A stretch of DNA of 62,636 bases, the filler included, from Collodictyon triciliatum (lineage: Eukaryota), in NCBI GenBank assembly GCA_043381765.1. It is 5 parts of 5 records of this genome, joined end to end, with 100 filler letters (N's around TTAATTAATTAA, not from the genome) between each part and the next. Parts side by side here need not be neighbours in the genome. Positions count along the whole stretch, not along the records: positions 1 to 18,036 come from JBHJMP010001408.1; 4 more parts are not named here. One strand, given 5' to 3'. Below the pieces are notes generated by a model. The model had not been told where the DNA came from. It searched no databases and worked only from the letters and a program-made list of their open reading frames with translations. Positions within the stretch are counted from its first letter, which is position 1. The number at the start of each line of letters is the position of its first letter. A program made the translations under genes and the position numbers. Shown piece by piece: positions 1 through 59,769 of the stretch.

Positions 1-186
1 AGAAAAAGAAGAAAAAGAAGAAGAAAAAGAAGAAGAAAAAGAAGAAGAAAAAGAAGAAAAAAAAGAAAAAGAAGAAGAAAAAGAAAAAAAGAAGAAAAAA
101 AAAGAAGAAAAAGAAAAAGAAGAAAAAGAAGAAGAAAAAGAAGAAGAAAAAGAAGAAGAAAAAGAAGAAGAAAAAGAAGAAAAGAA
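1..186. repeat. (GAA/GAAAAA)n purine tract, intronic
   Basis: Direct reading. Confidence 0.9.
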
Positions 187-213
187 TGTAAATATCCACA
201 CTGACAAACATAC

Positions 214-3200
214 CGGGGGTCAAATCTTGCTGTGGAATTCTTGTTGAAACAACATTCAAGGTATCGGATATATGGACTTCGTTTGCATAGCGGAATGACC
301 TTTATATGACACAGTAATATAGATTTGAAACAATAATGTTGATGGTAAAAAAAAAAAAAGAAAAGAAAAGAGGGGCGATAATTTCAGAAAGACGAAAATA
401 TTTCAGAATATAGTTGGTGACCTATAAAATTCTATAATAGGGTTCATGGTGATCGTATATGAATATTTGCTTACGGTAAAGTAGTAAGACCAGATTCGTC
501 TGTCCCTATGTATGGTTTATTGTCAAAGCACAAGAGGAATAGTTCCTTGTCCAACTTCTCGTAATCACACATAGCGAACAGCCCCCGTCCGTAAGAATAA
601 TCTATCCTGATGCAAACATAAAGCAACGACTCTAGTTCTTTTCTGAGAATATAATTTGTGCTATAGTCCAAGTCGATAATTTCAGCCGAGGATATCTGTT
701 CCAAATCAATCGACCAGCTGGGCCTCTTGATCTTCGGCTAATTGAAGATTTTTTTATATACCAAAAGTAGACCGAAAAAAAAATGAAAGAAAAGAAAACG
801 GATACATAGTTCAGATGAGATCGATCATAAATCGATAATATATATGCACGATCTTGGCATTACCTGATTAGTCTTCGGGTCTATTTCGGCAAACGGATCG
901 TTCTTCATCTCGTTGATCTAAGATGAATGAATGTAAATTATTCACGAAAATCGGTTAATGCGGTTTTTTCTTACTAAAAAAATAAAATATATTTTAGGCC
1001 TATAGTTTCTTTTAACAACGCGACAAAGTCCCATATGATAGGTATATACTAATACTAATAAAATTAAAAATAAAACAAAAAAACTACGGTACCCTCAGAG
1101 TATGAACGCGATTTAGCAAATCATTTTGGTATGCTACAATTTGCCGAATCATCTCCATCGGAATTCTTCCTTCAAGTGAAGAATTGATCAAAGCAAACAC
1201 TACCGGGGTCTACCAGAGGCAACATCCGCATTAGTGCTTCTGAGAATTGCATAGGGTCTGAATATACAAGTATAACGCCGGTAATTTTCAAGAAGAAAAA
1301 ACGAAACAAAAAACTGACAAACCCCTTCATTCATTAGTGGAACTTTGGCATTGCCGTTTTCTTTACGCAGAGTATCTTCAACACTCTCTCGCATAATGTT
1401 CCATCCCGCACAGAATTCATTGAATGTAAGAGAGAACGTATTTGAAGGGGTTTCGCTGGATAGAATAGAGAGTGTTTCACCCATAGTTTTTGCTCGAGCT
1501 TCGTCTCTGGTCATGCGTTTATCAAACAAGTTGTAAAGGTATTTCATCCACTTGATCATACTCGGTAAGTATCTGCAAGTTTACAAAATAAATGAATATA
1601 TAAGTGATGCATACTGCTAGTATATATGTATCAGACCAGTTATTCAACAAACAAACAAACAAACAAACAAACAAACAAACAAACAAACAAACAAACAAAC
1701 AAACAAAAGGTTATACATATAATTAATTTTTCACATAGCTGATGAAATAAAACCGGAATTGTATAAAGGCTAAAGAATAAATAAATATTTATATCGAATA
1801 ATTTGTTACCGAAGAGAAAGGACCGAATCTTGACGCTCCTTGAACGAGAATAGTGAATGCATGTTACTATCAGTTGAGGGAGGTAATCTCATGTACGTGG
1901 TGTCAAATAGGTCAAGTATATTCAATCGAATGCGGAATGATAATGGTAAGCTGTCTCGGACAAATTCAGGTCGTGTAACTTCTGCTGCAGGCAATGTGTC
2001 TTCCATGTCGAAGCAAAATTTTTCATTCATTTTCTGAACCTCCCTCAACAAATGTCGTGAATCATGAATAGCCTCATTGATGTCCTTTGAATATCTATTG
2101 AGGCATGATAAAAAGAGCGTTTCCTCGAAGTTCTTCCGAAGTTCGTAAGATTTGAGTACAGAAAAGTTTTCGCTCGACCTTGTGCCTAGCTCTCTTAAGG
2201 TCATATGAACAGTGATGGCCACATCCTCGTCGCTTTTTTTGGTGACCTCACGGAGAACTGCCCAATCACTACAAATTCTTTTGAAGATTACGTCAGGTTG
2301 TGAGATGGATTTGATATTGAGAGATCCTTTAGAAGTAGCAGCAAGGAAAAGAACTGAGTGCAGAAGTACTCTCATGATTCGGAAGGAAACAACATGCATC
2401 TCTCTTTCAGTGTACGTTTTAGAATCTAAAGTGGATGTTGGGACATCATATCCCTTTGGAGCACGTTCAGTGAGTTGAGAAACCATAACTTTCTCCACAT
2501 TTCGAGCAGGAACGTAAGATAAAGAATCTCCATCACGAATCACTCGGCGATGTCCTGAGAGCTGAACATTAACAATAAGTAGTCATTGAGCGAGTTGAAA
2601 GTTAATTCAATATAGGGCAATAATTCCGATACGGAGGAATTAAAAAAATGATGAAAATAAGTGAAAATGAAAATTAATGATAGTTTAAATATATTTTGGT
2701 TTATGAGAAGACGTAAAGAGGAAGATTGGCAGGAGGAGGCAAACATTAGGAGCAATAAAAGGGGGCACAATTTCTTACGGGATTATGATTAGTCCCTCCA
2801 GTATCTTCATTGCCACATTCTTGGCATCGAACGACCTCCATCGGCCAGGTACAATTCCACACGTTGTACAAGCATCCTTTCGGAGACACATAAACACCGT
2901 ATTGTGCATTAATCCATGCCACTAATGAATATAAATATTAATGAAACATGTAGCAGGATTCAATATGCGGGTAGGTCCATGATAATATACTGAAAAAATA
3001 AATCAAAATTCATAGTCAATTCGAAATATTCTTAAAGCACAGTAATACATACATGCATTCTTCTTTCGAGAGTCATCAGGCATAGATACCCAATAACTGT
3101 CAATGACGGAATCTGGATCTGCAAGTAGCTTGAGGAATGGGGTAGAATTTTCAGGAACGGAAACAACACTGGCAAAAACATTTGCGAGCACTGCCGAGAG

Positions 3201-6200
3201 ATACGCAAATGAATGGGGATAGTTTGGTTTGCAGACAAGGTCCGGAATAGGGAATTTGTTCTCTGCAAACATACTGAGAATATTTTTCATGTATTTTGGC
3301 CACGGTAGATCGTTTATGTACTTGATAATATCGGATATGGTAAACTTTCGAGCATGCTCATCAAGGGCACCATAGCGAAGATAAACCTTTAATTCAATTC
3401 GATGTGAATATAATTGCATTAAGGATATTTTTATGTAGGATTATTTTTTATCTCTCCGAAATGAAATAAAAAGATAGAAAAAATTTTAATTATTTACGCG
3501 ATCATATATGGCCAATATGAATGCCCTCATGAATATTGGATTGTTTTTTTCTTCAGTTGTATATTTGGGCAGCTGTCCCGCCTTTCCAACGAGTGAGAAT
3601 TCCAATTTATCCACAATATTCATGTAGAATGCACGGTAAGTACCAATATCTTGAAGGCTGTTGGTAAAATGAGAGAAGGGCACCACAGTTGGCACGTCAC
3701 TAGCATTTTGTTGGTTAATGAACCGAATGACTTCGGAATTTGAGAGATTTTTGAATTTCAAAAGTAAAAGCATCATGATCGTGCGCGAGAGCTGGAAACC
3801 ACTCTTGCTGTAAATTTTCTTGATAAAATATTTGATGAGAGCAGAGAAGTAAGGTCCCTCAGCACCCGGTAGCGTCAGGCCAAAGAGGGCCATATATTCA
3901 TCGGGGATGATGTTCAACTCCTGAAATTTCACGGTAATATCATGCGATATCAAGTCATAAAACTGCTTTCTGAATGCAATGTTCTCGAGGACATCGATCA
4001 TCGATTTACATGAGGAAAGAGGATTGTGATTTACAAAGTTGACAAACGCTTGATTATTCCCTCTATACAAATCTGAAATAAAGTCCTGGAAGGTTTCAAC
4101 ATAAAGAGCAGCGAGTGGACACGAAATGGAAGTTAGAGGCTGCAGAAGGGTCTTCGCTTTTGCTCTCCATTGGCTATCGGCCCAATTATTACCCTCCAAG
4201 TGCAGGATTTTCCCGAGGATAGAAGTGCGTGTAGACTGTGAGACTGAAATCTCATTCCTTACGAGGCGGCTGTCACTATCGAAGACAACGCGGGATATTT
4301 CATCCAAAAGGTAGTCATCCTTGATATTGGTGTTCAAAAATATGATGCGTGTCGAGTCGTGGAAGATTCTCTCAAAATGAGAGTTTTGCAAATACAATTC
4401 CCTTTTCACAGAAACACAAAAAGTAACGAGTTCCTCCCACAGCTCGAATGATTGAAAGTGCGATGGATCTGTCATAGTGGATTTCAAATTGCCGATGAAG
4501 GTTTCAATTCGGTCGCGAACTTCTTCATTGGTCAGATTTGAGAAAAGAATCCGGGACAACTGTAGATGACGATATCTGACAATCACATCAAGAATTCCCT
4601 GCGTATCTAAAGAGATTGAAAAATCATCGCTTTCAGTAACATTGTTTTCTGAGTCGAGTATATTCACGAGTTTCCCAAGCTTCAAAAAGAAGGTGTGATT
4701 TTCATAGCTAGATGTTGCTTCACCATCTAACAACGAGTAGATAATTTTTACTTTCAGCTCCAATATTGAACCAAAATCCTCATCGCTTATATTGCTGTAA
4801 ATAGTGTCCAATAAATTGTTGGGCAAAAACGACAGGGCTTGGTTCAACTCCAACAAAAAGGTACCGTGATACCAGGAGATAACATGTACTGTGTGGACGT
4901 AACGGTATGATTTCAACAGCTTGAGAGCAGTCTCAAAGAAAATGAGCAATATATTTGAAATTTTTTCTCGCTTCTGCTCGTCCTTATGAACGGAAAGGTA
5001 TTCCAGGGAGCGGACGTAGTCAACAAGATATTGGTGAGTAAGCTTATCCAGTACTTCATCATGGATTGTGTAGAGGAATGGGAACGAAGAACGACAGAGA
5101 CCTTCCAGCAAAACGATACATTGGTTCATCTTTTTGTTACTGTCGATACTGGATCCTATTTCCCCGCGATATCCTTCAATGGACCCAGCTATGAATGTAC
5201 TAAAGGGGAAGAATAGCTTGCTTCCAACCCTCAGAAGCCTCTTTGATACACCCAGGGCAACTTTGCCCTTCATGGCCTGTGATTCAAGCCTCCACAGAGG
5301 GTCATACGACAAGAAAGACAGCCAAATGTCGTGGATGGACTGTCTCAATTCTGGATGGTCATTTGATTGCAACAAGAGAAGGTTGCGTCCGTAACAGGAT
5401 ATATCCAAGAGATGGGACAGCTCGGTGTAGAATGCCTCGCGCAGCTTCTCAAACATAGCATTTCGCAAGCAGCCCTCCTTCTCGAGCAGCCTGATATCCT
5501 GGGGTTCGGAGGGATTCCACAAGCTCGAGCCGAGGAAGGTAGATGTTTTGTTTCTGAATGCTGCTATGAGTCTCTGCAAGAATTTCAGACGGAATGCCTC
5601 GTCTCCACCAACTCTGAAGAGAGTCCCGAACAACTGGATTTGCTCGGTCAAGTGAGAGCCCATTTGCGTGGCTGAGAGAGGCATGGCATGGACATATTCT
5701 TTCTCGACAAGTATTTCAAAGTTCATAATGTTTGTATCGCTGATGGCTTGTGAGACCGTCTTTTGTACCAGGGATGAAAGCTCTGGAATACCGTCGATGT
5801 ATCCAGGAAGCAGTGTGTCAAGGTAGATGTGGGTCCATGTGCGGTCAAATATGGCGGGTGTCTCGGTTTTCTTTTGATCTTTTGTCTCAAGCGCATTCAT
5901 CTTATCTGAACGCCTCAAACGGCGTGGGACGTAGTGAATAAGAATGATATGCTTCTTTGAAGGGTTGTGGCATGTAAGCTGCTTCTCCAAGTAGATAAAT
6001 TTGAAGTGATCAAGCCGCTCTAATGAACAGTATGAGGATTGGAATCCAACAATAAGATAACTCTCTTCCTGTTTGCTGAAGAATTCACCAAGACTCGCGT
6101 TGAGTGCTTGCTCTGTCAGGATGCAGCCGAGGTCGAGGGTGTCAACAGTCCAATGGAACTTGCGTTCGAGTGTTTGTTTCATAATGTCGAGGCCGGAGCC

Positions 6201-8522
6201 AAGCGCGTGAGTCCAGACAGAAAGATGAAGTCCGCTGGATTTTGTGTGTGGGAAACTCTTTTCCACTCCGTGCTCACCAATGTAAGACATCAAGTCCACA
6301 AGATTTTGGTGAGACTGTTTGTCAAAGTATATGTCTCGGACTGGAAGGTTGCCTATCTCAAGCTCACTTCTGAGGTTCAAGGCCCACTCCGGCTTGGCAA
6401 TCCAGATGAGAAGCTTCATGGAGTAGGCGAAGATGTCCTCCGGTGTCTCTGCAATATTACTGGTGCATAGGACAAGGGATTGGAATATTTCATCATGGTA
6501 ACCAGCGAAGACAGACTCTGGAGTAAAAGTGTCATTCTTGACATGCTGAGAGACCCAGTTCTAAATAAAGAAAAAGTATGTAATTAAACGATGAAAGAAA
6601 AAGAAAAAGAAAAAGAAAAAGAAAAAGAAAAAGAAAAAGAAAAAGACCTTCAACATCACGCACACATCAGAAAGCACAGGGGTTAGTAAGTCATCCACAG
6701 TGAGAAGCTGCTTTTCAAATCTGTTGAGGAACGGTGGCGGCAGACCATCAGGAGGCAAAGAATAGACTTCTTGTTGATTGGCAATCACGATGCACTTGAA
6801 GCGGTCATCCACAACGTAAAGCTCCTCTGATTGGGCACCGATGGGGAGATAGCAATACTTTCTTTGATTGAGCACAACATAGTGCTGGTTCAGCACGTCG
6901 TAAAGACTTTCGTAGATGTTTTGCTGTTTCACCAAAACAATACACTTTCCGGCTTCCATGCACTCACGAATGTTAAACATGACCTTGCTGATGTGATGGT
7001 CGTCGTGGTTATCTGGGTAATCTGCTGCATAAAAGATTCTTGTGTTCTCGTAAGATAGTTTCCCTTCATCATACAGATACTGAAGACCGTAGTTGTTATC
7101 GGTGACAACCATCAAATGGCGAGCGAAGGGGTCGGTCAAGTTTCTTGCAACAAGGTCAACCACAGGGATTTTGTGCAAGTCTGCAACACCCATTTCTTGT
7201 TGAAATACGCCAAACTTCTCCAACAAACGAGAAATACGGTCGCCATTCAGATTGCGGCAGATGGCCTCAGAGACAGAGTCTGATGTAACATCACGATTTC
7301 TTCTTTCAAGAAACTTGACAAAGTTGTAGAAATCGCGGAGTCCATAGTAATCATCCTTTGATGTTTTACCTGATGTCTCTTTTGCGAGGTCGAGTCCGAA
7401 AATCTTAGGTTGGAAGTTGTTGTACACAGTTTTGTAGGCAACTGATACCTTTTTTAAAGTATCTGATTTTGCAGGTTGTGTCCTTGCATCAAACCCAAGA
7501 ATTTCAATCGCAGTTTTGTGCAGGTCATCGATGCTAGGGTCAGGTCTATTGAGCACCAGCATGCGATTGGCCTTGGCTGCATCCAGTTCCCAGTTGGAAA
7601 TACCCACAACAGCAACTTTCGGCTTATCAAGCACCCAATGCAGCACCTTAAGGGGAAGGTCTGGACTTTGCTCGGCAAGTCCCACTTCATCTAATAGAAC
7701 CACTGGTAACATGTTTTCGGCCAGGCCGTGATGGGCTCGGTTGTAAACATCAAGGATTCCATTTGGAGTGGACAGAGGAGAGCATTGGTAAGTATAAAAG
7801 ACCAAGGAGGGAAATTTCTTAAAGAAGCCTGTCTTTTTCCTTTCAACGTTGAAGTTGCTCTTGAGGACTTGGATAGAGAAGGACTTTGAGCTTCCAGGTT
7901 TACCGACAATCAAAGAAGGCATCAAGCAAAAAATGGATACTATCATGATAAACAGGTTTTCGGTCAGAGCAAAGTTGCGAGACGTGTTTGATAAAAGTTC
8001 TAGATTTCGCATGTAGCATTGCTGCTCTTGGCTAAGGACACTCAAGTAAAATTTCGCATCTACTCGGAGAGGCCTGGCAACAAACAGGTCTGTGCCAGAT
8101 GAGCCTTGTGGAGGTTCTGCTTTGATACATTCGACCATTTTCGCCACGTAAGCAGTTCTGTTTTTATCGCCAAGTCGGTAATAGTAGCAGCATGAAAGAG
8201 CAAGGATAATAGAAGTGAGCTCCTTGTCAAGTCTCTGGGTGGTTGGAATCTTGGCCTCGGTATAGAACTTGACTCTATCTGGGTCATGTGAAATGAACCA
8301 TTTCTGCAGGGAAGTACATCGGTGCACATCACGCAAACTCACACAGGAGTTATCTTTGTATATACCTCTAAGGAAATCATGAGAGGCAACGATCATTCTC
8401 GAAAAAAGGTTTGTTTTCTCGGGCTTTCGGTCGTTACATAAAGTTGACGTATCAGTTAGCAAATTCGGATCATTTTGAAGAAGTGTGCATGAATGTATAT
8501 GTGTAGAATACGGGAGAAGAGG

Positions 8523-8611
<89 letters not shown>

Positions 8612-10945
8612 AAAAAAAAAAAATCAAAAATCAAAAATCAAAAATCAAAAATCAAAAATCAAAAATCAAAAATCAAAAATCAAAAATCAAAAATCAAAAA
8701 TCAAAAATCAAAAATCAAAAACTTACATTCAAGGTTGGATTCTGAACAATTGAGGGGACATACTGGTTCTCATCTTTGATAGATAGCGAACCAAAGTCCC
8801 AAACATGCATAGCCATGGAAGGTGGGATAGGATATACCAAGTATACCAAGCGGTCAAGTAACTCATCTTTGAACAAAGCGTTCTGAGGAGAGTTGTACTT
8901 GAAAATGAGGCCGGAGACAGCCCGGTTTTCAGTTTCGACTCGGAAGCGGTAGGGATTACAAGCTCCAATAATTGCGACATTGGCTGGGAATGGAATTCCG
9001 TCACAACTTCTATCGCACAGGCATTCTAGATAGACGTGTTGCTTTTTTTTTAGGAACACAAGTATTGGCCGTTCACTTTCTAGAGAAAATCGTAGAAATA
9101 TGGTGCTTTCTTCATTTAAAAAGAGAAAACAAGTAATATATCAAGATTAACCTTTGAAAAGGCCCATACAATTGGCGGCATTAATCTCGTCAAAGAATAA
9201 ATAAATTTGTTGTTTAGGGTTCTCCATAGCCGCATCTATGGGACATTTAAGACAGAGAAAAAAAAAAAGAAGATTAATTCTGATAAGATTGTGATTTATA
9301 GACACATCAATTTTTTTTATTTGTTTGTATGCACGTATGTATTAATTTTTCTATGTTCCTAGGTTTGTTTCATCATTCGAGCTACCTCTTGCTTTCTGTG
9401 CAATTTCTTTGACATCTTGCTCCTTAATGCCACCTGGGATAAAGAGAATATTACTCCTTTTGTTTTATTTTATTTTTTTAAAAAAAAGAAATATTCATCG
9501 GTTAGATATGGTCATACGCCCTCCACTACAAATTGGATGTGCATACCATGAACATCGAGAGTGAAGCTTTGACCCTCCATAATATCACAAAGGAATTTAA
9601 TGAGCCTCGTTTTCCCACATCCAGTTTCTCCCTTTTGATATGTATAGGGGGCTCAATAAAATGAATAAAGGCTGGTTGAGGGATTATGCAGAATTCTTGT
9701 GAATTAGTTAGGTTTGTGTATACTTTTAAAGACTCACCATAATAATGATTGGCAGACCGCTCTTAATTCTAAAGAACACAGAGACAATCTTGAGGAGATT
9801 ATCACGTGTGATAATAAACTCTTTTCCTGGCTGCTCGGCCATGAGTTTGATTTTCTCGACTCTTTCTCCAAATAAGATGGAAAGTTCCTCGTAGGCTTGC
9901 TCCTTGGTTATAGTGGTTATATTCGTTGGAGCAATCCCAAATTGAGCCATTTGCCGAGTCAATGTATGATAGAATCTCTCTTCAGGAGGAACAAGGACTC
10001 TGAACGAGCCGTCTCCTTTATGATTGAGGAGCACAAGAGGATGGTCCGAGTCAGACCATGTTCGTTTGAGTTCGAACGCGTTGTAAGCATTTGCTTCAGT
10101 ATATTGACCTGCGATGAATAGATTTCGGTCGAAGCAACTGATCGAAAAGTCTATCGCAGATTTCAACAAAACTTTGATGATTTCTTCTCGGATTTTCTTT
10201 GATTCCTTCAATCGAGTCGGAGTTAAGTGTTCGCTCATTTCAAACAGCTCCATTTGATAGAAACAAAACTTGACGAAACTGATTTGGAACGGTCTATCTT
10301 GTGGGCAAAACTCATCTAGAAGCTCCTGGCATCTGAGATCGGTATATTGTGTGATATATACTCCATTTCAATGAAATTTCATGAGTATGTACGTACAAAG
10401 TGGGCTCTTATAATTAATATTTGGTGGACATTCATATTATGCAGTCTCACCAGTAATTGATAGATAAATACATATGCGGCGATGGTAATGAATGAGTGAT
10501 TGATAATAACAATAACAAAATAAAATCTTTGAATCGAATAAAGGAAAAATAATAAAATAATAAAATAATAAAATAATAAAAACAACAATAATAATAACAA
10601 TAACAACTATAATAAAATAATAATAATGCTCAATTACGTCATTTCAGGTAGATCGGGGACCATGTGGGGGTTGAAGAGTAATGAGCGTATCTTATCCTCT
10701 TTGTAGGCCTTGATGGTTTTGCAGACGTATTGAATCATGTTTTGTGCCTGTCCAGACTTTGCTTTCACAACCAGATCTGGATTATATATGCTAACATCCA
10801 GCGGCAGCTTTACATCGATGATAGGAAGGAGAGACAAGAAATGCATGGCAGTGTGGGTCAGCCCATGGTTCATATTTGGAACTTCGATGAAGATGTGCTG
10901 TGGATAATTTAGAGATTGAACCATCAAGGTTAGCATTTCTTGGTG

Positions 10946-11042
<97 letters not shown>

Positions 11043-14000
11043 TGAAAATAACGCTGAATCATTTACTACTCCTCTAAAATGGTTTATTAAAACAAGTTTA
11101 GCTTATCATATTTACAATCACTTCTCATCTTATTGATACTTACACAAGGTTTGTCGAGATGAAATACATGTCCATTCATATCTTCCAGGGAACGTAGAAT
11201 CAAAAGAGAGAAGAATATTTTTCCGACTTCCTGGATTGTAGTTGTCCCAAGATTGAAATAGATCAATCTGGGTTCGGAAGAGAGCTTCTGAGTTAGCTGC
11301 TCTATTAAGTGGCTGACGGTGACGGAACCGTTAATTTGGATGGATTGAAAGTTTCCGCCCAACTCCATATATTTCTTTTTGACCAAAAAAGTCTTTCCGT
11401 AGCCAGGGGATAGGCTTGTTAGGATAAACGCACTGATTTTACTTTCAGTGAACAGGAATTCAGATGCCTTCTTCAGGCGAATGTCATCATAGGCAGATTT
11501 TGGCATGTTGCGGCGGCATTTGGCAAAGGCAGTGAGAAGAGGCTGCTTTTCTTTCTCCTTGGACACAATAACTAGGTAAGGCGTAAAGGTCACAGGCATT
11601 TCGTTTTTGTAAAACTGAACCATCGATTGCTGAATATCATGAGAGAGGTTCTCAGGCTCAAGCACCATGTAAACACTGTGTCGCTCAGATTGCTTCTGGA
11701 AACAGCGATAGAGGAATATCTGCACCTGCTCTAGTGTTGTAGTGGAGGTGCAGTCAAGAACCTCATCAGCAGTAGGTGCACGGCTCAAAAGCCCATAGTA
11801 AATGGACATGCAAATCATGAACACAGTTTTGGCATCAGGTGAATAAAGAATGTTTGGTTCATTTCGGCGAAGAGATGCCCAGTCGAGAGGACGGTCTTGC
11901 AATTCCAGGTCCCTTGGTGGGGGTTCAACAAAGGAATCTTTAAATTTCTCGAGTGCCTCTACAGTTTGTACAAGCCTGCTAGATAATCCATCATCGACAT
12001 TCCTAGATGCACTCACAATTCTAGACGTGTGAGTTCTAGTTATATCTTGGGTCGAAAAAGGAAGGACTCTCTGGATAAACTTGTAGAAAGTCTCATTTTC
12101 AGGAATGCGTAAAGGAAAGCCGGTGTTCATGATGGAGAATAACTGCTTTGTAGTAAAGAAGTTCACCACTGTATACTCTCTGCGTAGGGTTTGGACAATA
12201 CCTTCAAGCTCCTTAAATCTATGGTTTTCTAATTTACTTATTTGTGCAATTTTCTCGGCATCGAACGGCATGTTGTACGTAATGGTGCCCTCCTTTATAT
12301 AAAAGATATTATTTGTATTAGAATTTTTATTAGTAATTTTTTTCCCTATCTTTTACAGGGGTCATGTTGAGATTGTCTTGTTTTTAGGACTGTTTCGATC
12401 ACGACGCTTTATTCATGCGTTTTTTTTATAAAAAAAAATGATAAATAATCAAATTCATATAAATCATATATAAATAGAAGAGTTCCATTATTTGTTGAAT
12501 AAATTGACAAACTTGATAGTCTGGGTGGCCACTGGCTTTATAGTCTGAAATCATATGGAAATATTTGAATATCTCGACAATAAAGTCAACCAACGTCTTC
12601 ATGGACACTGCTTTATCCTCGCTGATGTCTCTTCCCAAGGACAGCATCAATGAAATGCGGGATCTGAGGGTATCGAGCTCAAGGTATGGGAATACCTTAG
12701 CATCACTTTCTGAGATATGTTTGCATAACAGGTCTATGCTACTTTTCGTCATGATAATTTGGAATTGGTAACCCTATAAATTAAAGTTCAATATTTTAAA
12801 GGAAAGATTCAAGAGAAGCTGAAAGATTTTTTTTTTTTAGGTATAAGATGAAACTAAAAGTAGAGATTGTATATTCTCACCTTCAAGATAGACTCCATAT
12901 CATTAATTGCCTGGCTCGAGGGTGTGGTGAGAGCTGTTTCGAGAATCACTTGAATATTCTCCATATTTTCAGTGACGTTATTGACGGCATCTAACAGTGC
13001 TTTCTTTGCTCTTTTCTCAGAGAGGCACTGGACATATTCACGTAGACTTGTGCTTCCACTCTTTTTCCACATGAAGATGGGATAAAACGCTTGCCAACAC
13101 GAGCGCAAGTCACGAATATATCTATGCTGAATATCACTCCTACAACGCACAACACACATTTCAAAAAGAGTCCTGACACCCTCCCAGTTGCCTTTATTTA
13201 GGCCTTCCAAGAATTCCAAGAATGTTGGCTTTGAAATGGTGTATAGATCTGCCAAAGATAGCTCTAATTTTCCAAAGTGATCGAAGGATCGATGCCACAG
13301 TTGCTGAATATGCTTGATGGTCAGTGCCGATTGAGGGTCAAGAATGGAGGATGTGGTTGGCTTGGTGGTAGAGGGCTTCTTTTCAATGTCCTGGGTAACT
13401 TGGAATGTCTTTTGGACGATGTAAATTTCATGGTCCTCTGAGCTCGGAATTTCATACTTTATATTTGAAAGGAATTTCAGGAATTTAGGGAGGATGCAAA
13501 CCGTTCTCTCGTAAGTTTCCAGACGATAGATATCTTGGGGGTCAATCTCGAGAGTTCGGGTCAATTTCTTGGACTGAAGAGTTTTCTCCAACGATAGGAG
13601 ATCCCTTTCCACTGTTTTGTTCTCGACAATACCGACTTCAATATAGCGCCTAAAGACGACTATATCCATCTCTTGAGATGACACTTGTCTGTGGAACTCA
13701 GAAAAGATTTGAAGAGCAGGTTCTACATATCGCAGGCGAAGGGTTTCTGTCAATATTTCAAGGTCCGGCTCGGCTCCAAATGCGTGGATCTGTTCAGAAC
13801 TGCCCTTTATGGATAAGGCATATGTTGTCCATAGATTTTTTGCCAATTGGTTACCACACAAGTTTGAAAAAACAGGTAGGTGAGGCCAAAGTGAAGGCAG
13901 AGGGAGGCGGTTTGTTGATGATTCGATATTCAACCCACCCCAAGCACGCTCAATCGAAGTATACATGGTTTCAAGAGTGTCGTAAACGACCGCGTTTCCA

Positions 14001-17000
14001 AGAGGGAATATAAAATACTTGTTGAACTCTTTTAATTGACGGAAAATGAGCGTCATTTTCTGCATCTCATCGTAAAGAGCCTTGTACTGCTCCAAGAAAT
14101 GTGCACCGAAAGTCACTTCGATCTGGGTGTGGAACAAGCGCACGTCCTCTAATAACGAGAAAGAACCTGATTTTTCCTCCACGTGTATTTTGAATGTTGT
14201 TAAGAGAGATTCCAGGTTCTGATAAACATGTGAGAGCCTCATAAGGGACGATGATTTTTCTTTTAGCCTCAAGAAGAGGCTATGCCAATGAGTGTGATGT
14301 TTGAGTAATACAGGGAATTCTCGTGGAATTTTAAGGGCTTGCACCAATTCAAACATCAAGTAATCGATAACAACGTTGGATACATCATCAAACTATATAT
14401 TTCAAGCAAAATGATTAAAGAAGAGTATAGGAATTTTTTTAAAATAAATAAATAAATAATTGACTCATTCATGATTGTAGTCAGAAAATGTATATTAAAG
14501 AAGAACCTGGAGCAAAAACATTATGGAATCAAATTTGGGTTCTGAGACAAATATCGAACTCAGTCCTTTCAATAGAAGTAATGTAAGTGAATCTGGAAGA
14601 GCTTTAAATTCAGCCGTAGAATCATATAAGGCTTTGATTGTCTTGTCCAAACGATTGCTCTGGACATACGAAACCACAGTGTTTTCATATATTTGAATTG
14701 CTGCTTCATTTTTAAAGATTAAGTAGAAATGACCCAATGACTGCACAAATTCTCTAAAGTTGGTAAATATTGTATCGTTAGCCTTCAGAGACCTGAGCAA
14801 AGAATCTTCTGTTAATTTCAAATGACCCTTAGACATGCCTCTCTTGAACAGAATTTGGTACCAATCCAGAACTCTTGGCCAGTAACAGACGTCAGGATTG
14901 GTTAATAGGGCTCTTATTATACGGTCCTGGATTAAGTCTGGATTGCTCGATAATATGTCAAAGGTTCTTAATAAGTAGATAGATGAGCTTAGCAATGATT
15001 CAAGAATGAGCTGACAAGCATCAGTGGTGGTCTGGGTCCATCGATTCCCTCTTAAGAGGGTTACGGCCATATCCAGGTTGGCAACTTCAGGTTGTGTAAG
15101 AAGGCTATGAGCGAATGAAGCTACCAAACTATCTCTCATGCGAAAGAGGACAACTCCAACAGAGGCTGTTGGATCTTGATTGGAACTAGACTCTTCCCTT
15201 TTCGATAGATTCACAACTTCATGAATTGCTCTTATTTGATCTGCCACAAGAAAAAAAACATTTTTTATTTACTTCCAACTTTTTTTTTTAAAAAAAAAAT
15301 ATTGTAGGAATAAAAAAAAAAAAGAAGTGATCTATCGGACAATATAGATGAACGATAGAGCGGACAAGAAAAACAAATATAAGGAAAGGGAAATGAAGAA
15401 ATAACTACCCTCGAACGACAGAAATTTGGACATGTACGTGACCAGTGCAAAAGGATCGTGAATTTTTTGTTGACTTCCTTGTTTTTTTATGACCTCACAA
15501 AACTTTGAGATACTGTATTTAGCAGTTTGCGAAGAACGGATTGCAGAAAAGCCTTCGTAAGAACACTCAATCTTCTCTATCTGGTCCATTTTGAAATCGT
15601 TGATAGAGTTGAAGACATTGTTAAAAGCGCATATGGGGGCAACAAAATCATCATTCGTTCTATTGATTATATCTGTAAGTATGTAAAAAAGGGATGTCAT
15701 GATAACACGAAGGGGGACCATAACTCCTCTTCTAGATTTTAATGTGCTTAGAAGAGCATCTGTGTATGGCTCAAAAACAACTTTTGCCGGATGGAACGTT
15801 GATGAAAGAGGGAAAACTGATTTGTTTCCAAAATAGCGTAAGTTATGAACTACCCAGAGCCAGTGGGAAATAGCACTAAAAAAATTGACAGAGTTATACG
15901 AGTCCATCAATATGTTAAGGGACTGGCCCATAGTCAATGGAGTAGGGAGGAGATTGTACTTTTTCAGGCTGTCAAATAGTGAAACGTAATCAGCATAATC
16001 CAGTTGGTGCCTCTTAGTTTCTTGCTCCAAATCGGCGGTGGAAATTCCTTCTGGAAATAAAATGGTCAGATATCTACGGAAGCATGCCGTAATTCCCATT
16101 GTGAGTCCATGTCTTGATTCTGCAAGGAATGCTTCCGGAACGGGCTGGTTGGCCACGATGTGCATGGTACAAAAGCAAGCATGCTCGTCAATATCAATAA
16201 AGAAAGTTTGGGCATTTCGCACTGATCCATTCTCATCCAGCAGAACAACACTGATGGCCTGTGCGATCTCAGTCTCCCATGGGTGGATTTGGATATCTGC
16301 AACGAATACGTTGGCAAAGTCGTCAAGCCTTTCGCTCAGTTTCAAAACTTGATAGGCGTTGGACTGTCCGTAGCTGTAAAATACTCCTACTCTTGGAGTA
16401 AAGCCCTCGATATTCGTGACATAGGTCCACACTGAAATTTTCTTTCTTTTTTCTTGCCTCAAATCCGCCTGGTGCAGTTGCATATGATGCCTGGCCCCCT
16501 TGATAGTGGCGTCTAATTTCTCGAGAGTGGACTCTGATTGAGACGTGCGAAATTCTGTCGAGATGTGACTAACATCCAGAGGGCGGAGTTTTTTAGAATC
16601 CATTCCTACCTGCTTGCTTTTAAACAATCCCGCCAAAGGGTTCTTGGTGTCTGGTTTCTTTTTCTGGTCACTCTCCTTTGCAGCCTTCAGGATGTTCAAG
16701 TATTTGGCAATTTCAGGATACTTAAACCCAGAGTCAGTGTTAGCTCTTCCAAACCCTCTCATAAGATGACCTGGAGTATCATCGTTGGGTATCTGAGAGA
16801 GTTGTTCATAGCTCAAAACAGGAAGGAATTTGCTACTCTTTTCTGAGCTAGATGCATCCCCTGCCATTAAATGCTCTTGCTCCTGGAGCATCTTAGCAAG
16901 CTCTGCATCGTTGCTTGTATCCAGCAAAACGGTCACGCCTAGAGGCGAAGATGAGGAGGGAGAAGGGGCAGAAGCAGAAGCAAATGCAGACGCAGACGAT

Positions 17001-17893
17001 TCTGGGTCGGGCTTTGGGATGCTGCCCTGAACCTTAGGCTGTTGTGGAAGAACGATGCCAACGAGCTCCTCGGGCGGGGTGCTGTTCTTGCGCTGCAGTA
17101 TAACAGGACGAGGCTTCGAAGCCAGTGGTGGCTCATCTCCGGCCTTAATGGCGTTGTCGATGGAAGCCTGCCGCTGAAGCAGAGTGGATGCAGTCCTCGT
17201 AGGACTAGGTGTGTGGGTTGAGGCAGATGCACGGGGGCCATCTGAAGGCAATACGGAAGCCTGGGAAGTATAGGCAAGGCTTCGTGGATGGTCGGCTGGT
17301 GGCGAGGCTGAGGCTGAGACAAATGTAGAAGGAGAAGTAGAAGTAGCAGACGTTCTGACCGAGTCGCCCAGACCTGATGATGTCTGCCGCAATGCTGGAA
17401 GGAGTGAGCGCGGCTGTCCGAAGCCCGGGCTGGCTCTCATGGACTGGGCAGGCAATGTGCTGACCACGCCCTTTGGTGACGCACTGGGCGATGGTTGGAT
17501 GGTCTCGGCTATCCGGTGCTGGGCTGCTTCGGAGAGACCAAGGTCTTTGAGCAGGCCTTGCTGCGTGCCAAAAGGCAAAGCGTTGCGGATGCCCTTGGCC
17601 AAGAGTATGGCGGTCTCGTCGCCGAGTCCTCTACTTGCCCAGAAGACGGCCCCTTCGAGGAAGTTTCGCCCACGGGCCTGATTTGTCCGGGTCATATCCT
17701 GGAGGATCGATTCGCAGTCCTTGGCTTGCAGAGTGCCGAGAGACTCGGCTGTCCTGAAGTTGCGCGAGTGCAGAGCATTCAGAAGGAAGGAGACAGACTG
17801 GGACTCAAGCACCTTCTCCAGCGTCAAGCTGCCCGGTGGTGGTTCCGGTGAGCTGGGCGCCTTTCCTGACGGCCTTAAGTCCTCTTGCGACAT
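214..17893 (-). CDS. RNF213: RNF213/mysterin-like giant AAA+ ATPase / RZ-finger E3 ligase, multi-exon, 3' end runs off the window start
   Basis: Hand-spliced ORFs give the RNF213 motif series in order: SPGYGKT (~11400), IM|GETGCGKT (9548-9632), YLFFDEIN, IIGACNPYR, LVYLVYPIPPSM..VWDFG, VSLRDV, LIVGKPGSSKS, VLLDEVGLAE.SPDLPLKVLH, VGISNW.LDAAKANR, YGLRDFY, NIYESLYDVLNQHY, PPPFLNRFEK, then an RZ finger (2779-2921) and YSYGRG (~590). GT-AG junctions keep frame where checked. The last exon seen is 214-299 with no stop. Confidence 0.93.
1646..1707. repeat. (CAAA)n microsatellite, intronic
   Basis: Direct reading. Confidence 0.95.
2779..2921 (-). other. Exon encoding the RZ-type zinc finger of the RNF213-like protein
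   Basis: AG/GT-bounded 143-nt exon missed by the ORF track. Spliced translation MPDDSRKKNALAWINAQYGVYVSPKGCLYNVWNCTWPMEVVRCQECGNEDTGGTNHNP aligns with the recalled RNF213 sequence MPED...WYTCPNGHPCSVGECGRPMEQSICIDCHAPIGGIDHKP. Confidence 0.85.
6594..6645. repeat. (AAAAAG)n next to a 5' splice site
   Basis: Direct reading. Confidence 0.9.
8523..8721. repeat. poly(A) plus (AAAAATC)n, intronic
   Basis: Direct reading. Confidence 0.95.
10526..10548 (+). mobile_element. 3'-end copy of the same element in an RNF213 intron
   Basis: TCTTTGAATCGAATAAAGGAAA followed by (TAAAATAA)n. A TSD cannot be resolved in the low-complexity flanks. Confidence 0.6.
10946..11039. repeat. (AAT)n microsatellite, intronic
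   Basis: Direct reading. Confidence 0.95.
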
Positions 17894-17965
17894 TCGCGTT
17901 TGCTCGGGTTTGTCTATTGGAGAAGCTGCGTTAGGTCAGGATCCGGTGAGCAGTACTTGCAGTGA

Positions 17966-18004
<39 letters not shown>

Positions 18005-18036: not shown

Positions 18037-18136
18037 NNNNNNNNNNNNNNNNNNNNNNNNNNNNNNNNNNNNNNNNNNNNTTAATTAATTAANNNNNNNN
18101 NNNNNNNNNNNNNNNNNNNNNNNNNNNNNNNNNNNN
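18037..18136. other. Artificial contig linker (N run, TTAATTAATTAA, N run)
   Basis: Six-frame-stop spacer embedded in Ns; the same design occurs four times. Confidence 0.97.
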
Positions 18137-59526: not shown

Positions 59527-59625
59527 NNNNNNNNNNNNNNNNNNNNNNNNNNNNNNNNNNNNNNNNNNNNTTAATTAATTAANNNNNNNNNNNNNNNNNN
59601 NNNNNNNNNNNNNNNNNNNNNNNNN
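59527..59625. other. Artificial contig linker
   Basis: N run, TTAATTAATTAA, N run. Confidence 0.97.
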
Positions 59626-59769
59626 NTTTTTTTTTTTTTTTTTTTTTTTTTTTGTTGGGTGGGGGGGGGGGGGGGGGGGGGGGGGGTTTGCTTTTTTAGG
59701 CTTAAAAACTGTTTAATACGTTGTGCGTGTTCATCACTTATACTCCAAAAGGAACTTATCAGATATAAG

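Follow-up and report, generated by a model that had tools for sequence, protein, structure and literature searches.

An RNF213-like gene with an RZ finger

The window, by which we mean the whole stretch of DNA that was analysed (62,636 nucleotides from Collodictyon triciliatum, filler included), carries near its start a long gene on the minus strand that resembles RNF213. Towards the 3′ end of this gene lies a short exon encoding an RZ finger. As an active site, the RZ finger enables RNF213 to attach ubiquitin to bacterial lipid A, and it also serves ZNFX1 in the defence against viruses. The gene, its AAA motifs and the exons and introns around the finger are as follows.

209..17260, minus strand: whole RNF213-like gene, as matched by residues 34-4637 of the orthologue P0002 (tblastn)
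9608..9631, minus strand: Walker A motif GETGCGKT of the first active AAA module, with its Walker B motif FFDE at 9186-9197
7881..7904, minus strand: Walker A motif GKPGSSKS of the second active AAA module, with its Walker B motif LLDEVG at 7680-7697
3053..3386, minus strand: upstream exon, 3′ part, ending in ...SRKKNA plus one base; covered by cDNA to 3386 (X1 record 2, X2 record 9)
2922..3052, minus strand: intron upstream of the RZ exon, 131 nt, GT..AG; joint of 2921 to 3053 in X1 and X2
2779..2921, minus strand: RZ-finger exon, 143 nt; from sequence, cDNA joints and Pfam
2562..2778, minus strand: intron downstream of the RZ exon, 217 nt, GT..AG; joint of 2561 to 2779 in X1
1810..2561, minus strand: downstream exon, starting with LSGHRRVIRDGD and encoding the region after the RZ finger; cDNA pieces 1810-2206 and 2249-2561

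The orthologue that delimits the gene, P0002, is a 4817-residue EukProt transcriptome protein. As its last approximately 180 residues are unmatched, the 3′ end of the gene probably lies beyond the start of the window. An open reading frame is maintained throughout the gene, and both Walker A/B pairs are intact. The ORF at 6690-8480, an AAA region which carries the second Walker pair, matches mouse RNF213 with an E-value of 5e-63, and residues 1651-3041 of P0002 match the same protein with an E-value of 1e-127. A weak match (20.2 bits, E 0.0003) also connects residues 4525-4782 of P0002 with the C-terminal region of mouse RNF213 (4326-4582). As judged from homology, the host protein is RNF213-like and not ZNFX1-like. 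In RNF213, the C-terminal domain that follows the RZ finger is described as the E2-binding region in the available text of 10.1101/2025.09.05.674436.

Pfam scans of P0002 and of window ORFs returned neither a RING nor a U-box, and a regular expression for RING domains found no match in P0002 or on the minus strand of positions 1-18000; several protist relatives are likewise devoid of a RING. A Miz/Z-RING partner domain was not detected in the host protein either. This leaves the RZ finger as the sole E3 element that can be recognised in this protein. Another RZ-like pattern occurs at 5279-5320; its frame differs from that of the coding exon, and it was discarded as a chance occurrence. The genes adjoining the RNF213-like gene include formate/nitrite transporters.

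Splicing and expression of the RZ exon

The RZ exon is real and expressed. Contigs of cDNA from two runs (X1 and X2) were aligned over positions 1720-6580, and the spliced contigs of both runs include the exon. Record 2 of X1 (790 nt) joins 2561 to 2779 and 2921 to 3053, i.e. both borders of the exon, and record 9 of X2 (438 nt) joins 2921 to 3053. The stretches absent from the contigs have CT..AC ends on the plus strand, corresponding to GT..AG in the coding orientation. The runs carry no more than the label ‘RNA?’, but two features show that they derive from spliced RNA, namely that their contigs are intron-less and that they share a loose-end oligonucleotide, which we take to be the complement of a template-switch primer. 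At position 1810, the loose end of a contig runs on into the next exon, and the upstream exon (3053..3386) may extend further in the 5′ direction.

The exon is entered in phase 1 and left in phase 0 and, once joined to the final base of the exon before it, encodes L-AWINAQYGVYVSPKGCLYNVWNCTWPMEVVRCQECGNEDTGGTNHNP. The exon string given by a previous reading of this DNA (hereafter the sequence-only reading) is contained exactly in the minus-strand translation of 2779-2919, AWINAQYGVYVSPKGCLYNVWNCTWPMEVVRCQECGNEDTGGTNHNP. With an upstream exon that closes in phase 1 and a length of 143 nt, loss of the RZ exon from the transcript would put all downstream sequence, including the C-terminal region, out of frame. 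The same reading had remarked that the exon is missing from the ORF track; it is indeed absent from the default list, which takes ORFs of at least 60 residues with an ATG, GTG or TTG start.

Over its 143 nt, the exon shows zero base differences between the genome and the X1 and X2 contigs. In particular, the codon at 2884-2886, which the sequence-only reading had singled out as Ser, reads TCT and not TGT in the cDNA, and this agreement of the genome with two cDNA runs indicates that the Ser codon is real. It also bears on the idea that the finger is an artefact, whether because the Ser codon was wrongly sequenced or assembled, because the gene is a pseudogene or because the exon is not used. 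Such an explanation, in favour of which nothing was found, we regard as barely credible: the cDNA evidence is at the level of contigs and not of raw reads, which leaves room for rare exon skipping, but genome and cDNA agree on TCT with correct GT..AG joints, the frame is open across the gene, and two independent orthologue transcripts (see below) encode the same Ser and Cys. Pieces of the gene with 99% identity are also found in lake and freshwater metatranscriptomes (including X3 and X4); these pieces lie outside the RZ exon. We take the organism to be a microbial eukaryote of fresh water.

An RZ finger with altered ligand positions

The RZ exon is a domain match and not a chance pattern: scored against the Pfam profile PF20173 (ZnF_RZ-type), as the sequence-only reading had suggested for the zf-RZ profile, the 63-residue stop-to-stop frame of the window reached 34.2 bits, above the cut-off of 27 (E 2e-8).

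The functional residues of the RZ finger have been described for several proteins. In human RNF213, the metal site consists of C4505, H4509, C4525 and C4528, with C4516 as the proposed nucleophile and H4537 as the proposed base, according to the available text of PMC11549300, with which the roles given for these residues in the sequence-only reading agree. In the mouse protein, mutants and UV-vis measurements showed that metal binding needs Cys4451, His4455, Cys4471 and Cys4474, that mutation of any single metal ligand abolishes autoubiquitination, and that Cys4462 and His4483 form the catalytic dyad (PMC12075652, in the parts available). The RZ finger of ZNFX1 follows the layout of RNF213, with C1849/H1853/C1869/C1872 and C1860/H1881 in the corresponding roles (available passages of 10.1101/2025.10.14.682297 and 10.1101/2025.09.05.674436). 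The equivalent positions in the window finger are listed below.

2884..2886, minus strand: Ser12, codon TCT, aligned with zinc ligand 1 (human C4505, mouse C4451); from the alignments, and the same in X1 and X2 cDNA
2872..2874, minus strand: Cys16, codon TGC, aligned with zinc ligand 2 (human H4509, mouse H4455); from the alignments
2851..2853, minus strand: Cys23, codon TGT, aligned with the transthiolation nucleophile (human C4516, mouse C4462); without variation in alignment A2, role from the literature
2815..2826, minus strand: C-Q-E-C knuckle with Cys32 (TGC, 2824-2826) and Cys35 (TGT, 2815-2817), positions of zinc ligands 3 and 4 (human C4525, C4528); invariant in A2
2785..2787, minus strand: His45, codon CAT, aligned with the proposed general base (human H4537, mouse H4483); without variation in A2, role from the literature

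These assignments agree in three alignments, made with mouse RNF213, with a local profile and with MAFFT (A2). Moreover, the P-x-G between the first two ligand positions is kept, so that the register of the alignment is not in doubt. The usual four-ligand pattern, Cys-x3-His...Cys-x2-Cys, is not present in the window finger, in which ligands 1 and 2 are changed and ligands 3 and 4 kept; over the key columns, the finger reads SCCCCH, the catalytic loop Cys and the His after GG both being there. The non-conserved Cys4457 of the mouse aligns with a Tyr. From the genetic code, the change of Cys to Ser (TGT to TCT) takes one base and that of His to Cys takes two, which indicates that the Ser/Cys pair is no trivial polymorphism.

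Like the finger of mammalian RNF213, that of the window is situated after a long post-AAA region and before the C-terminal region, and it displays a P-x-G knuckle, a nucleophile Cys, C-x2-C and GG-x2-H; as far as C-x2-C, the two fingers are spaced in the same way. The differences are those that had been announced from the sequence: in the alignment to RNF213, the ligand set is Ser/Cys/Cys/Cys (Ser as ligand 1 and Cys as ligand 2) with the catalytic Cys and His retained, and in two alignments WNCT replaces GECG and one extra residue is inserted between C-x2-C and GG. To these is added the lack of a RING in the host. With ZNFX1, compared by description only, the window finger shares the domain family and the Cys/His transthiolation chemistry proposed in the available text, whereas its host is an RNF213-type AAA protein instead of an SF1 helicase. 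We found no account of an RZ finger with Ser in the full-text literature as far as it was available, where only the usual Cys/His pattern appears (supplementary alignments might show variants).

RZ fingers are characterised by a beta-sandwich fold that binds one Zn2+. An AlphaFold2 model of the exon, computed from a 29-row alignment, is of no more than moderate confidence (mean pLDDT 67), with strands at 8-11 and 17-20 and two-residue strand stretches at 30-31 and 39-40. A Foldseek search of the PDB with this model gave no match at an E-value of 0.001 or better, the top rows being actin and WW domains. The alignment is dominated by usual fingers, so that the effect of the two substitutions could not show, and the AlphaFold2/Foldseek result neither supports nor weakens any reading of the RZ fold.

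Distribution and conservation of the variant

The AAA core of P0002, used as a query, retrieved 1886 RNF213-like proteins of 2649-8430 residues, from which the best 120 were kept. RZ fingers were then surveyed in 125 sequences (124 database proteins and the window frame) with a local profile built from seeds picked by regular expression, the variants being among the seeds; the survey thus covers RNF213-like proteins only, and the best 120 of the 1886 matches. A finger scoring at least 15 bits was found in 36 sequences, the other 89 falling below that score. Four kinds of finger were distinguished:

— Usual fingers, reading CHCCCH, account for 29 of the 36.

— One further finger (Physarum P0038) reads CHCCC-, i.e. 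it has no terminal His.

— Three fingers (P0056, P0062 and Naegleria lovaniensis P0111) have a C-x2-C first knuckle, P0111 also being without the terminal His.

— The pattern SCCCCH is seen in three fingers only, those of the window, P0002 and P0009.

No finger of the S...H or C-x3-C form occurs among these 36 RZ fingers of RNF213-like proteins. Likewise, SxxGC, which might have turned out to be common once surveyed, is absent from the 33 other fingers, RNF213-like proteins again being the scope. Some of the 89 fingerless sequences hold a ‘CPCGT...CPECK’ remnant without the nucleophile loop. Fingers that look decayed lose catalytic residues, as seen from the missing terminal His in P0038 and P0111, whereas the window, P0002 and P0009 keep all of them.

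Usual fingers of protist RNF213-like proteins, such as those of Thecamonas (P0029), Salpingoeca (P0066) and the nearest one, P0020, belong to the same protein family as the window finger. The 30 fingers with the usual ligands, those reading CHCCCH or CHCCC-, keep C-P/x-x-G-H at ligands 1 and 2, unlike the window finger; P0020, for its part, has CTWPMEV after the nucleophile, as in the window. Natural RZ fingers with Cys in place of His at ligand 2 do exist, namely P0056, P0062 and P0111, and in this they resemble the window finger. However, they keep Cys at ligand 1 and have ligand 2 moved by one place, and none of them has Ser.

The two other carriers of the variant, P0002 and P0009 (also a EukProt transcriptome prediction), both read V/L-S-P-N-G-C, followed by the nucleophile Cys, C-x2-C and GG-x2-H. 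Compared with the window, the 39-residue RZ core is identical at 36 of 39 positions in P0002 (92%) and at 30 of 39 in P0009 (77%), versus 62% and 33% (337/1020), respectively, for the neighbouring 1024-residue exon. Between themselves, P0002 and P0009 are 38.6% identical overall, versus 74% in the RZ segment. When 3640 sliding windows are ranked by identity, this segment is within the top 6.4%, a group whose other members come mostly from the AAA core and its surroundings. By these identities, the variant finger is under strong purifying selection, and its presence in two orthologues that have otherwise diverged speaks for a function.

A quick tree of the AAA region (midpoint-rooted and with long branches, the careful search being unfinished) groups the window with P0002 (97), then with P0009 and the truncated P0010, and has P0020, with its usual ligands, as neighbour of this variant clade (100). 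The sequence of P0010, which is 43% identical, ends before the RZ region. The tree topology is consistent with a single origin of the variant from the usual form.

Larger collections were searched as well. HMMER with the 1024-residue exon against 1.84 billion representatives gave only six hits, of which one (P0002) was useful; another, P0005, is a low-complexity false hit. In word-index searches, the 47-residue exon had no candidate with three common words among longer proteins, and P0002 4040-4400 had 7539 candidates among shorter proteins, none at an E-value of 0.001 or better. Scanning metagenome contigs for YNVWNCT and CQECGNE led to 379 pattern matches, and a single one (L001) was confirmed by tblastn. 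The latter was rejected as a chance match, since it spans a 13-residue stretch only (query 26-38, with CQECGNE) and has no RZ motif; by eye, it is presumably a bacterial anhydro-MurNAc-kinase-like sequence.

How the variant finger could work

From the comparisons above, the variant is best read as a lineage-specific, selected re-arrangement of the zinc site. The proposal of the sequence-only reading, a structurally rewired but possibly active RZ E3 module with altered metal or substrate chemistry, is thereby borne out in part. The usual Cys3His site amounts to three thiolates and a neutral imidazole; the variant would keep this count, the neutral ligand having moved from position 2 to position 1. 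Indeed, because the charge of the site is preserved and only the neutral position has moved, the two changes can be read as a compensated pair. The finger would then fold round one zinc through the thiolates of Cys16, Cys32 and Cys35, with the hydroxyl of Ser12 or a water molecule at the fourth, neutral position, and Cys23 would accept ubiquitin from the E2 with His45 acting as the base. We consider it somewhat probable that the finger still binds zinc and presents Cys23 and His45 for ubiquitin transfer. This reading as an active finger relies on the retention of the catalytic pair, which is lost in decayed-looking fingers, and on the fact that the protein has no other recognisable E3 element.

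Several points speak against activity. Serine is a poor and rare zinc ligand. On PF20173, seven fingers with the usual ligands from RNF213-like proteins score 62.6-76.6 bits and the window finger about half as much; of the other two variant fingers, P0009 scores 35.5 bits and P0002 22.9 bits, the latter under the cut-off of 27. In addition, conservation reflects selection on sequence and not on catalysis, and the variant is present in three sequences only, two of which are transcriptome predictions. Finally, the single-ligand mutants of mouse RNF213 are inactive, including that of the very Cys which is Ser here, so that the Ser could mean a dead finger.

These points lead to a first alternative, in which the finger would be conserved but catalytically inactive, the loss of ligand 1 having turned it into a structural or binding module (e.g. 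for ubiquitin binding or scaffolding). In that case, Cys23 or His45 might have been recruited as the fourth metal ligand, and the protein would rely on its AAA core or on some E3 element that has escaped recognition. The abolition of activity by any single ligand mutation in the mouse (PMC12075652, in the parts available), the low Pfam scores and the altered loops, in which a Trp-Asn peculiar to the clade precedes the nucleophile Cys and one residue is inserted after C-x2-C, would all fit such a module. It is nonetheless difficult to reconcile with the nucleophile Cys, the base His and the preceding GG being retained in three of three clade members at 33-62% background identity, or with the failure to find another E3 domain in the protein, and we hold it to be rather unlikely.

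A second alternative starts from the loss of metal ligands itself. The U-box is a precedent, relative to the RING, for an E3 zinc-binding fold that loses its metal ligands and stays functional. By analogy, the window finger could be active but metal-poor, on its way to a zinc-free fold, in which hydrogen bonds of Ser12 and the packing of a new Trp21 would take over some or even all of the metal's structural role. The bulky, clade-specific Trp21 near the nucleophile and the Ser at ligand 1 would agree with this scenario. However, the U-box lost all its ligands, whereas the window finger retains three Cys, which makes a full loss of metal unlikely; the strict conservation of these three ligand-position Cys in all three species is hard to explain without metal, and the replacement of His by Cys at ligand 2 provides a better zinc ligand, the opposite of decay. 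A metal-poor finger thus seems to us a quite unlikely outcome.

Returning to the selected re-arrangement of the zinc site, a more speculative version of it can be formulated. The three-cysteine site could be open, with a labile Ser hydroxyl or water, and the metal could serve as a switch of the ligase or as a Lewis acid for ester-linked ubiquitylation. As a switch, it would be controlled through Ser phosphorylation, redox state or metal availability; as a Lewis acid, it would help to activate hydroxyl acceptors for the formation of the ester linkage. We deem this version quite improbable. If true, it would represent a new mode of control or a new chemistry for RZ-type E3 ligases.

Implications for RZ-type ligases

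The metal site of RZ fingers has so far been treated as four invariant residues, and the variant described here has a Ser at an essential Cys along with a neighbouring change of His to Cys, conserved in three organisms. Such fingers can be missed by profile cut-offs, as one of the three falls under the Pfam threshold, and a simple ORF list leaves the exon out. To judge from its sequence and conservation, the variant looks like a working natural form of the RZ finger and not like a defect. It would be a ready-made compensated double mutant, from which structural biologists could learn what the site can do without, and it provides a straightforward way to test if the RZ metal site truly requires no more than three thiolates and a neutral ligand.

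Sequence composition of the window

The RNF213-like gene (window 209-17260, minus strand) contains simple repeats, of which the long homopolymer and short-period A/T-rich ones (A runs of up to 101 nt on the plus strand) lie between its coding blocks:

6594-6646 and 8523-8721: homopolymer and short-period A/T-rich repeats
10946-11039: (ATA)31 repeat
1646-1707: (AACA)15 repeat

Four pairs of 44-N runs were also recorded, the members of each pair being separated by 12 bases (352 N in total):

18037-18136: first pair, just upstream of the RNF213-like gene
36118-36217: second pair
51731-51830: third pair
59527-59626: fourth pair

These stretches had been put down as masked or unresolved sequence; their positions are, however, exactly those of the 100-letter filler placed at the joins between records, and they are thus not genomic.

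Contigs of two cDNA runs, X1 and X2, were aligned to window 1720-6580. The organism labels of the two runs differ, and 9 of the 14 base differences listed from the window are common to both; X1 and X2 seem to hold a single strain, slightly unlike the sequenced one.

Other genes

Pfam searches of the window identified the following genes, all on records other than that of the RNF213-like gene, so that they need not be its neighbours in the genome:

20921-22654, minus: bZIP factor
27443-27829, minus: 2-oxoacid dehydrogenase acyltransferase fragment
31629-32691 and 34627-35079, minus: two adjoining formate/nitrite transporter genes (Form_Nir_trans, E 1e-34 to 1e-36)
37992-38402, plus: RRM protein followed by Arg/Ser repeats
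46156-46731, minus: SGT1-family protein
48639-49505, plus: eukaryotic porin

The two transporter genes look like a tandem pair. The others are ordinary housekeeping genes, and no sign of a defence cluster was detected among them by Pfam in the window.

RING, U-box and RZ finger in RNF213-like proteins

Neither a RING nor a U-box was found in the window homologue with Pfam and regular expressions; among 11 relatives scanned, protists included (Pfam, E 0.001 or better), a U-box was present in the database protein P0104 alone.

The RZ finger itself takes other forms among RNF213-like database proteins. In P0056, P0062 and P0111 the first RZ knuckle shows a second naturally occurring variant, with C-x2-C-G/D-Y in place of C-P-x-G-H; the first two proteins form a single clade, and P0111, from Naegleria lovaniensis, is placed apart from it in a quick, midpoint-rooted tree of the AAA region with long branches.

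Many RNF213-like proteins of approximately 4000 aa, from metagenome and run assemblies, display at the RZ position a 'CPCGT...CPECK' remnant (e.g. P0078, P0082, P0088, P0091 and P0094). This remnant keeps four Cys without the nucleophile loop or GG-x2-H, and looks like a zinc ribbon remaining once the catalytic parts were lost.
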